A stretch of DNA of 13,532 nucleotides, taken from positions 1 through 13,532 of IMG/VR virus record IMGVR_UViG_2778261085_000011; one strand, written 5' to 3'. How positions within the stretch are numbered: position 1 is the first letter of the stretch; every line of letters starts with the position of its first letter. A model generated the notes under the pieces. It had not been told where the DNA came from. It did no database searches and saw only the letters and a program-made list of their open reading frames with translations. Shown piece after piece: positions 3,340 through 3,470 of the stretch. The stretch is from a virus. Its lineage: Duplodnaviria > Heunggongvirae > Uroviricota > Caudoviricetes. The position numbers and the translations under genes are program-made.

Positions 3340-3470
3340 AATTTAAATAAAAACATAATGTTACATGCAAGAAGTACCGACATGCTTTTTCCCTGAAAAA
3401 TTTTCATAAATAGTGAAAATCTGCGCGTCTGCCGCCCCGTGGTGTTAATGGTTCCGGAAAGGACCCGTGA
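3340..3470 (-). other. Lambda-type cos site (cosQ-like, cosN-like, cosB-like), copy A
   Basis: Minus strand reads ACGGGTCCTTTCCGG (plus 3454-3468), then 16 nt, then GGGCGGCAGACG (plus 3426-3437; 8/12 identical to lambda cosN GGGCGGCGACCT), then CGCAGATTTTCACTATTTATGAAAATTTT and ATGTTTTTATTTAAAT. Order and much of the sequence match the lambda cos region as recalled; the Nu1-like frame begins about 180 nt downstream. Confidence 0.7.

Follow-up and report, generated by a model that had tools for sequence, protein, structure and literature searches.

Background

Phage-inducible chromosomal islands (PICIs) from Escherichia coli that hijack the terminases of lambdoid phages through a cohesive end site (cos) are already established. 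EcCICFT073 has two working cos sites, whose cosQ and cosN elements are lambdoid, and is packaged via cos by phages lambda and phi80 (PMC6092414, PMC6739421); it needs the small terminase subunit (TerS) of the helper and goes into phage-sized capsids, and its Rpp protein redirects helper TerS to the cosB of the island (PMC6092414, PMC6739421, PMC9026076). In Rpp-type cos PICIs the rpp gene starts about 100 bp downstream of cosN (PMC6739421, PMC9026076), and a single cosB element, R3-PICI (bp 48–65, with the core ACCACCACC at bp 55–63), has been proposed as the Rpp-TerS binding site (PMC9026076). Some Gram-negative PICIs are reported to carry terS (PMC6092414), and the cf-PICIs encode capsid, protease, portal and connectors together with hnh-terS-terL (bioRxiv 10.1101/2022.09.08.507074). 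Here we describe a cos-bearing island found in a 13,532-nt stretch of viral DNA (IMG/VR record IMGVR_UViG_2778261085_000011, positions 1 to 13,532; the whole stretch is called the window). It carries a complete cos of phage 21 type, named cos-a, next to a broken terS gene. We consider it probable that cos-a serves for the packaging of a 14.4-kb EcCICFT073-family PICI, inserted at tRNA-Pro(GGG), and that it is recognised by a helper TerS of 21 type or by factors of a co-resident island.

The first-pass annotation of the window, made from the sequence alone, had read it as a cos-packaged satellite. This reading is supported, but the class has been in print since 2018–2019. Judged by its gene content and cos units, the island is an EcCICFT073-family PICI, so the satellite reading is not new; the locus adds modestly to what is established, and the finding mainly confirms that reading raw sequence can spot a satellite packaging site.

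A complete cos site of phage 21 type

Coordinates are those of the window, and base pairs within a cos are counted from base 1 of cosN (3437 for cos-a). Positions 3200–3560 were compared by BLAST with 50,697 GenBank phage records (2.3 Gb of phage DNA). This alignment to known lambdoid cos regions, proposed as a check in the first-pass annotation, gave significant matches to 96 lambdoid records, the best with E-values of 1e-37 to 5e-31. Among them was phage 21 (Jouyvirus; M81255, OL657228; E = 5e-31), in which cosN, R3, I1, R2, R1, I2 and R4/cosQ are individually annotated. The annotated cos regions of phage 21, lambda and other lambdoid phages aligned to the site at 73–81% identity, and in multiple alignments each subsite was in register. 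The subsites are as follows.

3466–3455, minus strand: cosQ (named R4 in the phage 21 annotation), GGGTCCTTTCCG, 28–17 bp upstream of cosN
3437–3426, minus strand: cosN of cos-a, the predicted 12-nt cohesive end GGGCGGCAGACG, aligning to the annotated phage 21 cosN
3419–3391, minus strand: I2-like 29-mer TTTTCACTATTTATGAAAATTTTTCAGGG between cosN and R3, overlapping the phage 21 I2 (IHF) site annotated in M81255
3385–3370, minus strand: cosB R3 box GCATGTCGGTACTTCT, bp 53–68, with the phage-21-type core TGTCGG; 14 of 16 bases equal those of the annotated phage 21 R3, by eye
3364–3346, minus strand: cosB I1 (IHF site equivalent), aligning to the annotated phage 21 I1
3326–3311, minus strand: cosB R2 box ATACGACACCATAACG in inverted orientation, bp 112–127
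3287–3272, minus strand: cosB R1 box GTTTCATGTCGGAGGT, bp 151–166; in the alignment with phage 21 R1 the TTTCATGTCGG core is the same
3261–3257, minus strand: ribosome-binding site GAGGA, 8 nt upstream of ATT
3248–3246, minus strand: first codon of the Nu1 frame, bp 190

On the minus strand from 3466 to 3272, cosQ, cosN, I2, R3, I1, R2 and R1 thus stand in the order and spacing annotated for phage 21, where R3 lies at 50–65, I1 at 74–86, R2 at 107–122, R1 at 150–166 and the ATG of terS at 189; the subsites of the window are within about 5 bp of these positions, and the order is kept including the inverted R2. All 12 bases of cosQ are conserved in an alignment of the window, phage 21 and the island of E. 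coli C5, and 16 nt plus one G separate cosQ from cosN. The cosN of cos-a has two-fold symmetry at 10 of 16 positions, the same as in lambda and 21. The 29-mer is identical in phage 21, and no match was obtained in 200 shuffles with up to 3 mismatches allowed. The 12-nt core of cosQ on its own has no significance (about 1.1 chance matches expected with up to 2 mismatches); the evidence for a cos is therefore the complete array and no single motif.

The alignment placed the R-box core, TGTCGG/CGACA, with phage 21 and PhiR5_1 and not with the GATCC of Gifsy-1; the R-box core of lambda is CGTTTCC. The earlier proposal of cosQ-, cosN- and cosB-like sequence on the minus strand in lambda order and spacing, followed by a Nu1 frame, is thus borne out for the elements, their order and their spacing, but cosB is of phage 21 type and not of lambda type. 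The interval then proposed, 3340–3470, spans cosQ to I1, and R2 and R1 lie just outside it, down to 3272.

With all its subsites in register, cos-a is a real and complete phage-21-type cos, and the predicted packaging site. It shares with phage 21 the subsite order and spacing, the position of the terS start (bp 190 versus 189) and the R-box core; it differs in its overall identity of about 73%, in 4 of 12 positions of cosN, in the diverged R2 and in that no terL or head genes follow in the satellite. The subsites look identical by eye to those of the related locus L007, in which terS is intact, so the site itself is without decay.

The terS remnant

The frame that follows cos-a is listed below.

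2970–3248, minus strand: terS' stump, 93 codons of a Nu1-type small terminase, with the start ATT instead of ATG

The first-pass annotation had noted this Nu1-like frame next to cos but had missed that it is broken: it starts with ATT, and its homology ends after codon 93 at 2970, from where 30 unrelated codons run to a stop at 2877–2879. The frame matched Pfam Phage_Nu1 over profile positions 1–93 of 164 (E = 5.9e-43) and lambda TerS in PDB 6HN7_B (E = 4e-36). Intact homologues of 194–200 aa are found in relatives, including C5 and L007, and that of C5, a TerS of 194 aa, matched lambda TerS (PDB 6HN7 chain B) with E = 6.6e-39. By its start codon and truncation the frame is a pseudogene, and terS is dead in this copy.

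The ATT start and the truncation were both found in 11 of 11 loci of the stump lineage and in none of 8 intact copies. The lineage includes islands with a DUF927 primase (L004/L005) in place of RepA, and its copies are 99.7–100% identical to one another. The truncation junction was present in none of 5,426 complete E. coli genomes; in about 16 of these genomes, which have a terS of this type, the alignment breaks off exactly at the junction. As a called protein, the stump was found as one 87-aa cluster on 2 contigs among 5.8 billion clusters. Recurrent functional stumps received no support in this large protein search, in which the many 'partial' Nu1 matches were uninformative. Reasoning of the dN/dS type was set aside for the stump, as the differences to L007 cluster as a recombination tract and the lineage copies are nearly identical.

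Further cos units and the slot between them

A pattern scan revealed three cosQ/cosN units in the window, not one. The other two, and the duplicated gene that accompanies them, are located as follows.

4457–4416, minus strand: cos-b, with cosQ-like GGGTCCTCCCGG (4457–4446) and cosN-like GGGCGGCGGACG (4427–4416)
4069–4109, plus strand: cos-c, with cosQ-like GGGTCCTCCTGG and degenerate cosN-like GGGCGGGAGCAT
3763–4059, minus strand: phrog_1561 gene, copy 1, 98 aa (phrog_1561, E = 7e-50), 72% identical to the last EcCICFT073 gene
2519–2812, minus strand: phrog_1561 gene, copy 2 (E = 1.4e-47), a direct repeat with 84% identity over 213 nt

Together, cos-b and cos-c make up a 72-nt inverted repeat whose arms are separated by an AT-rich spacer of 218 bp. 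The position of cos-b matches that of the EcCICFT073 cos upstream of rppA, and EcCICFT073 has its counterpart of cos-c between rppA and the gene of 93 aa. Both units have an element of the CACCACCAC type, at about bp 48–56 in cos-b, which resembles the proposed R3-PICI and has no I1-R2-R1 after it. Its sequence is CACCACCACA in cos-b and CATCACCAC in cos-c, in both from bp 48 and about 6 bp nearer to cosN than in the rppA/rppC sites; cos-a is without an element of the CACCACCAC type. The cosN of cos-c is symmetric at only 8 of 16 positions, and the segment comprising cos-c and adjacent sequence is present in 973 of the 5,426 complete E. coli genomes.

A tblastn search of the whole island with RppA and RppC gave nothing better than E = 1.5. 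In the control locus L026, RppC was found at bp 102, and this protein matched PDB 6HLK with E = 1.7e-101. The content of the slot between the inverted cos units in the window and its relatives is as follows.

EcCICFT073: rppA
L026: rppC next to the only cos detected, for which no inverted partner was seen
L007 and L018: cos-a and intact terS
E. coli C5: cos-a, terS and PAAR/S-type pyocin/immunity cargo (L003 5642–8068)
This window: nothing, 218 bp

Among the relatives the slot thus holds rppA, rppC, terS with a 21-type cos, terS with toxin cargo, or nothing, and acts like an exchangeable cassette for specificity and cargo. In the window, cos-a/terS' is not in the usual slot but is enclosed by the two direct copies of the 98-aa gene, and the cos-a/terS segment of L007 (5554–6376) is inverted relative to it. 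The structure therefore looks like a recombination product, and the inversion in L007 suggests inversion or exchange via the flanking inverted cos repeats. The phrog_1561 protein (93–98 aa), which had no Pfam or PDB sequence match, is encoded after the packaging slot in EcCICFT073, C5, L007, L026 and L027, and is duplicated here. It was considered as a candidate Rpp and rejected: it has no PDB match to RppC and is the conserved phrog_1561 gene found downstream of rpp in CFT073.

The cosN variant and packaging specificity

As stated in the first-pass annotation, the 12-mer of cosN differs from that of lambda at four positions, the mismatches between GGGCGGCAGACG and GGGCGGCGACCT being at positions 8, 9, 10 and 12. 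The suggestion drawn from this, a helper different from lambda, is weak, since the same cosN adjoins RppC, a type characterised with lambda and phi80. It was found next to rppC in L026, and in 8 relatives an intact terS adjoins it; in IMG/VR the combination of GGGCGGCAGACG with a canonical cosQ occurred only on contigs of 9.8–13.7 kb. From its presence beside RppC and its restriction to satellite-sized contigs, we conclude that the four differences are a trait of the satellite lineage already seen in a published PICI type, and not evidence for an exotic helper. Murialdo and Feiss placed specificity in TerS-cosB contacts and not in cosN, the TerL nuclease having little sequence specificity and being positioned via these contacts (PMC9026076).

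The intact satellite TerS and phage 21 gp1 have an identical 10-residue recognition helix, in keeping with the R boxes of 21 type. The C-terminal part of the satellite TerS, which in lambda TerS is the part that binds TerL (PMC9026076), is only about 30–43% identical to gp1, and its last 45 residues are only 17–42% identical to the phage proteins compared, among which the lambda Nu1 sequence used agrees with 6HN7_B over its first 98 residues. When the helper was sought through this domain by tblastn, the closest phage C-terminal half was that of PhiR5_1 at only 60%, which is not decisive. Close relatives of the satellite TerS (at least 91%) were found only on IMG/VR contigs of 10.5–13.7 kb.

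Integration site, gene content and relation to known satellites

The window is 100% identical to positions 4682–18213 of the E. coli draft contig L013. The island on this contig is 14,366 bp long and is inserted at tRNA-Pro(GGG) between yejM and yejO, with yejO-narP-ccm on one side and yejM on the other. The att cores, the 3' end of tRNA-Pro (attL) and a degenerate copy of it (attR), lie 14,366 bp apart and share the core CTCTCGTGCC; strain K-12 MG1655 carries the uninterrupted (empty) site. Both flanks are 100% identical to E. coli and contain host genes only. Structural or terminase genes directly beyond the window, which the first-pass annotation had named as speaking against a satellite, are thus excluded. 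The sole island gene outside the window is a 145-aa open reading frame (ORF) paired with a SocA/Panacea antitoxin gene.

Two 26-nt direct repeats, TTTTTAGCTACACGTTWAGCTATACG, 14,146 bp apart, were rejected as att sites, as comparison with K-12 showed them to be internal and the true junctions to be at the 3' end of tRNA-Pro. These repeats (L013 4592–4617, which in window numbering would be 13597–13622 and so falls outside the window, and L013 18738–18763) lie just inside both ends, contain TAGCTAYACG sub-repeats and may be arm-type integrase binding sites.

The main backbone genes were assigned as follows.

12291–13532, minus strand: tyrosine integrase, adjoining tRNA-Pro(GGG), which is outside the window (Pfam Phage_integrase, Arm-DNA-bind_3, Phage_int_M)
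11570–11776, minus strand: alpA-type regulator (Pfam Phage_AlpA, E = 4.5e-8)
6807–8213, minus strand: RepA-family replicative helicase (Pfam AAA_25, E = 1.2e-43; 'helicase RepA family protein' in the C5 relative)
6597–6809, no strand assigned: iteron array of CTCCCCACTTTT-type direct repeats spaced about 84 and 168 bp, a putative ori just downstream of rep
5410–5835, minus strand: single-stranded DNA-binding protein (SSB; Pfam SSB, E = 3.5e-16)
4565–4852 and 1660–2031, minus strand: two PerC-family paralogues (Pfam PerC, E = 8e-33 and 8e-23), the first located upstream of the cos region, the second in the accessory region

Further genes comprise an Ash/Icd region, DUF4222 and ProQ/FinO. No capsid, portal, tail, terL or lysis family matched in the ORFs scanned against Pfam and PHROGs, and gene calls over the island and its flanks show none; the Psu, Sid and Delta families likewise had no Pfam or PHROG match in the ORFs scanned. 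These scans confirm the first-pass inventory of int, alpA, a Rep ATPase with iterons and SSB, with no capsid, tail or large terminase gene. The island therefore shows the sequence features used to define PICIs (PMC6092414): an integrase at the end of an att-flanked unit in the size range of about 10–15 kb, AlpA after int, its own replication module with a putative ori, no structural or lysis genes found, and cos as putative packaging determinant. The definition also includes excision, replication, packaging and transfer at high frequency upon induction by a helper phage, together with interference against that helper.

Like EcCICFT073, taken for comparison from the CFT073 genome, the island has a tyrosine integrase, AlpA, DUF4222, a replication gene with ori, SSB, PerC and inverted cosQ/cosN units followed by the gene of 93 aa in EcCICFT073 (72% identical), has no structural genes and is in the range of about 11–14 kb; its cosN GGGCGGCAGACG equals that adjacent to RppC in Rpp-type PICIs. 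It differs from EcCICFT073 in that no rpp was found and the inverted-cos slot is 218 bp, that the replication gene is a RepA/AAA_25 helicase versus a primase in CFT073, and that the insertion is at tRNA-Pro (yejM-yejO) versus roxA-phoQ. It also has a third cos with a full phage-21-type cosB beside a terS remnant, whereas Rpp-type cos has a single R3 (PMC9026076).

The terS-encoding islands (IHE3034 and 18098 according to PMC6092414; C5, L007 and L018–L022 in this work) have cos-a at 92% identity or more; their terS belongs to the same allele family, their int, rep and SSB modules are those of this island, and C5 has the same att site. In these islands terS is intact with an ATG and lies inside the inverted cos pair, whereas here an ATT stump is displaced between phrog_1561 copies; the PAAR, S-type pyocin and immunity cargo of C5 is also not present here. 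None of the capsid, protease, portal, connector or hnh-terS-terL genes of cf-PICIs was found in the island. Satellite P4 uses a P2-type cos together with the Sid, Psu and Delta proteins. The island shares with P4 a C4/CI-type antisense RNA and an Ash-family ORF, but its cos is lambdoid and Psu, Sid and Delta were not found in the scanned ORFs. Direct recognition by the helper terminase, to which the lack of a working TerS or Rpp points, would be a likeness to P4, which uses P2 cos, and to SaPIbov5, which uses helper cos; the sequences are unrelated, and no sequenced phage was found with a cosN identical to this one.

Relatives H46 and H50–H54 have int, rep and SSB modules about 92–93% identical to those of the island, plus a capsid or protease-capsid fusion and terS, and the same backbone appears with cf-PICI-like or EcCICFT073-like capsid modules.

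Proposed packaging of the island and alternative explanations

After induction of a lambdoid helper, the island would excise (Int/AlpA) and replicate from the iterons (RepA, SSB) into concatemers, which the helper terminase would cut at cosN and package into helper capsids. The packaged DNA would probably be about three unit lengths, 43.1 kb versus the 42.9-kb genome of phage 21. In relatives with intact terS, the island TerS would bind cosB and recruit helper TerL. Because TerS and Rpp are both missing from this copy, cos-a must be recognised by a 21-type helper TerS or through a co-resident island: most likely, a lambdoid helper terminase with 21-type TerS specificity would read cos-a directly, and otherwise the site would be read by TerS or Rpp of a co-resident island. 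This copy would then lack the interference expected from Rpp or island TerS.

Several observations weigh against this proposal. R2 is only about 10/16 identical to phage 21 R2, and residue 24 of the satellite TerS is M or T versus S in phage 21, a specificity position in lambda (PMC9026076); it is therefore not certain that a true 21-type TerS would recognise cos-a. The cosN GGGCGGCAGACG was sought with two pattern scans of IMG/VR and by BLAST of GenBank phages, which gave only satellite-sized contigs and no sequenced phage, and so no helper candidate in this way. The terS-encoding PICIs IHE3034 and 18098 gave no transfer upon induction of resident prophages (PMC6092414). With both specificity genes gone and the truncation junction in 0 of 5,426 complete E. 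coli genomes, this copy may be a decaying and poorly mobile variant. A lineage in which both specificity genes are gone and the cos sites are intact does exist. If this lineage still moves, PICIs would be shown to need no more than direct cos mimicry to spread in E. coli, and the lineage would also be a natural test bed for cosB/TerS specificity (21 versus lambda type) and for the tolerance of TerL towards cosN variants.

An alternative, which we regard as unlikely though deserving of weight, is that cos-a and terS' are an inactive recombination relic and that the island is packaged from cos-b with Rpp supplied in trans by another PICI (or from cos-a with an intact island TerS so supplied), or is immobile. 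The displaced position of cos-a/terS' between the two phrog_1561 copies, when in L007 and C5 it is inside the slot, would agree with this, as would the two independent lesions of terS, the likeness of the cos-b CACCACCAC element to the proposed R3-PICI of rppA/rppC cos (PMC9026076), and the fact that E. coli genomes often hold several related islands, with up to 7 matching places per genome. The element of cos-b, however, starts about 6 bp nearer to cosN than in rpp-linked sites, and in lambda a 3-bp change in the cosN-cosB spacing is already severely deleterious (PMC9026076). A degenerate cosN is seen in cos-c, and the subsites of cos-a are intact and look identical to those beside the working terS of L007. 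Moreover, the same truncated module is found in two replication backgrounds (RepA, and the DUF927 primase of L004/L005), which suggests continued circulation.

It is improbable, in our estimate, that the island represents an 'orphan-cos' PICI in its own right, with an empty rpp slot, a dead terS and a retained 21-type cos, that would spread by pure cos mimicry or with the ATT-started 93-codon stump acting as a proto-Rpp that heterodimerises with helper TerS.

More doubtful still is the specific proposal that the stump is expressed at a low level from ATT with the GAGGA ribosome-binding site and would act like Rpp, as an N-terminal fragment for DNA binding and dimerisation that forms heterodimers with helper TerS, redirects it to cos-a and interferes with helper packaging; we hold this to be very improbable. 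The stump covers the TerS region crystallised with RppC (residues 1–95 of lambda TerS 1–98; PMC6739421), and Rpp has a TerS-like DNA-binding domain without the TerL-binding tail (PMC6739421, PMC9026076). The ribosome-binding site is also retained 8 nt upstream of ATT, and the stump is a fixed feature of at least 11 assemblies with two replication-module backgrounds. On the other hand, the canonical start is lost in every truncated copy, a classic pseudogene pattern, the tail consists of 30 unrelated read-through codons, and the stump is almost never called as a gene; the copies being 99.7–100% identical, selection on it is not assessable. If true, the proposal would reveal how Rpp could have evolved directly from TerS.

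A further reading, that an ordinary lambdoid prophage has decayed here to one end, with cos-Nu1 left after deletion of head genes, can be dismissed with near certainty. The cos-terS segment, with about 73% identity to phage 21, clearly derives from a lambdoid phage. The unit, however, has att cores at a distance of 14,366 bp at a tRNA gene and is flanked by host genes on either side, its modules for int, alpA, rep-ori and SSB correspond to those of EcCICFT073-type PICIs and not of lambdoid phages, and the IMG/VR relatives with this terS or cosN are all 9.8–13.7 kb.

Accessory genes, RNAs and repeats

Searches of the accessory genes against PADLOC gave no matches. The SocA/Panacea antitoxin gene (window 1–462, minus strand) overlaps the 145-aa ORF (phrog_8366, L013 18210–18647), and the two are probably a toxin-antitoxin or anti-phage cargo pair.

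Two RNAs on the minus strand scored above the Rfam gathering scores: isrK (9500–9576, 80 bits) and C4 antisense RNA (9391–9478, 76 bits). Both overlap the Phage_ASH match, on the same strand, of a 178-aa 'Ash family' ORF (9148–9684, minus strand). Either a protein gene coincides with the RNAs here, or conserved P4/P1-type immunity RNA genes have been translated as an ORF. A longer ORF of 805 aa (9148–11565, minus strand) was rejected as a stop-free artefact, being of low complexity and overlapping plus-strand genes, e.g. 10685–10987 (phrog_6522); the gene caller of the source assembly made a 549-aa 'Ash' protein from part of it. Upstream of isrK/C4, a 48-nt direct repeat (9714–9761 and 10500–10547, 96% identical, 786 bp apart) contains a CCCGG...CCGGG hairpin in each copy. 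These repeats may be targets of a C4-like RNA, with a duplex energy of -35 kcal/mol computed without a control.

A (GGCT)n microsatellite of about 16 units is located at about 1491–1556 of the window (L013 16658–16723), and its length could vary between strains.

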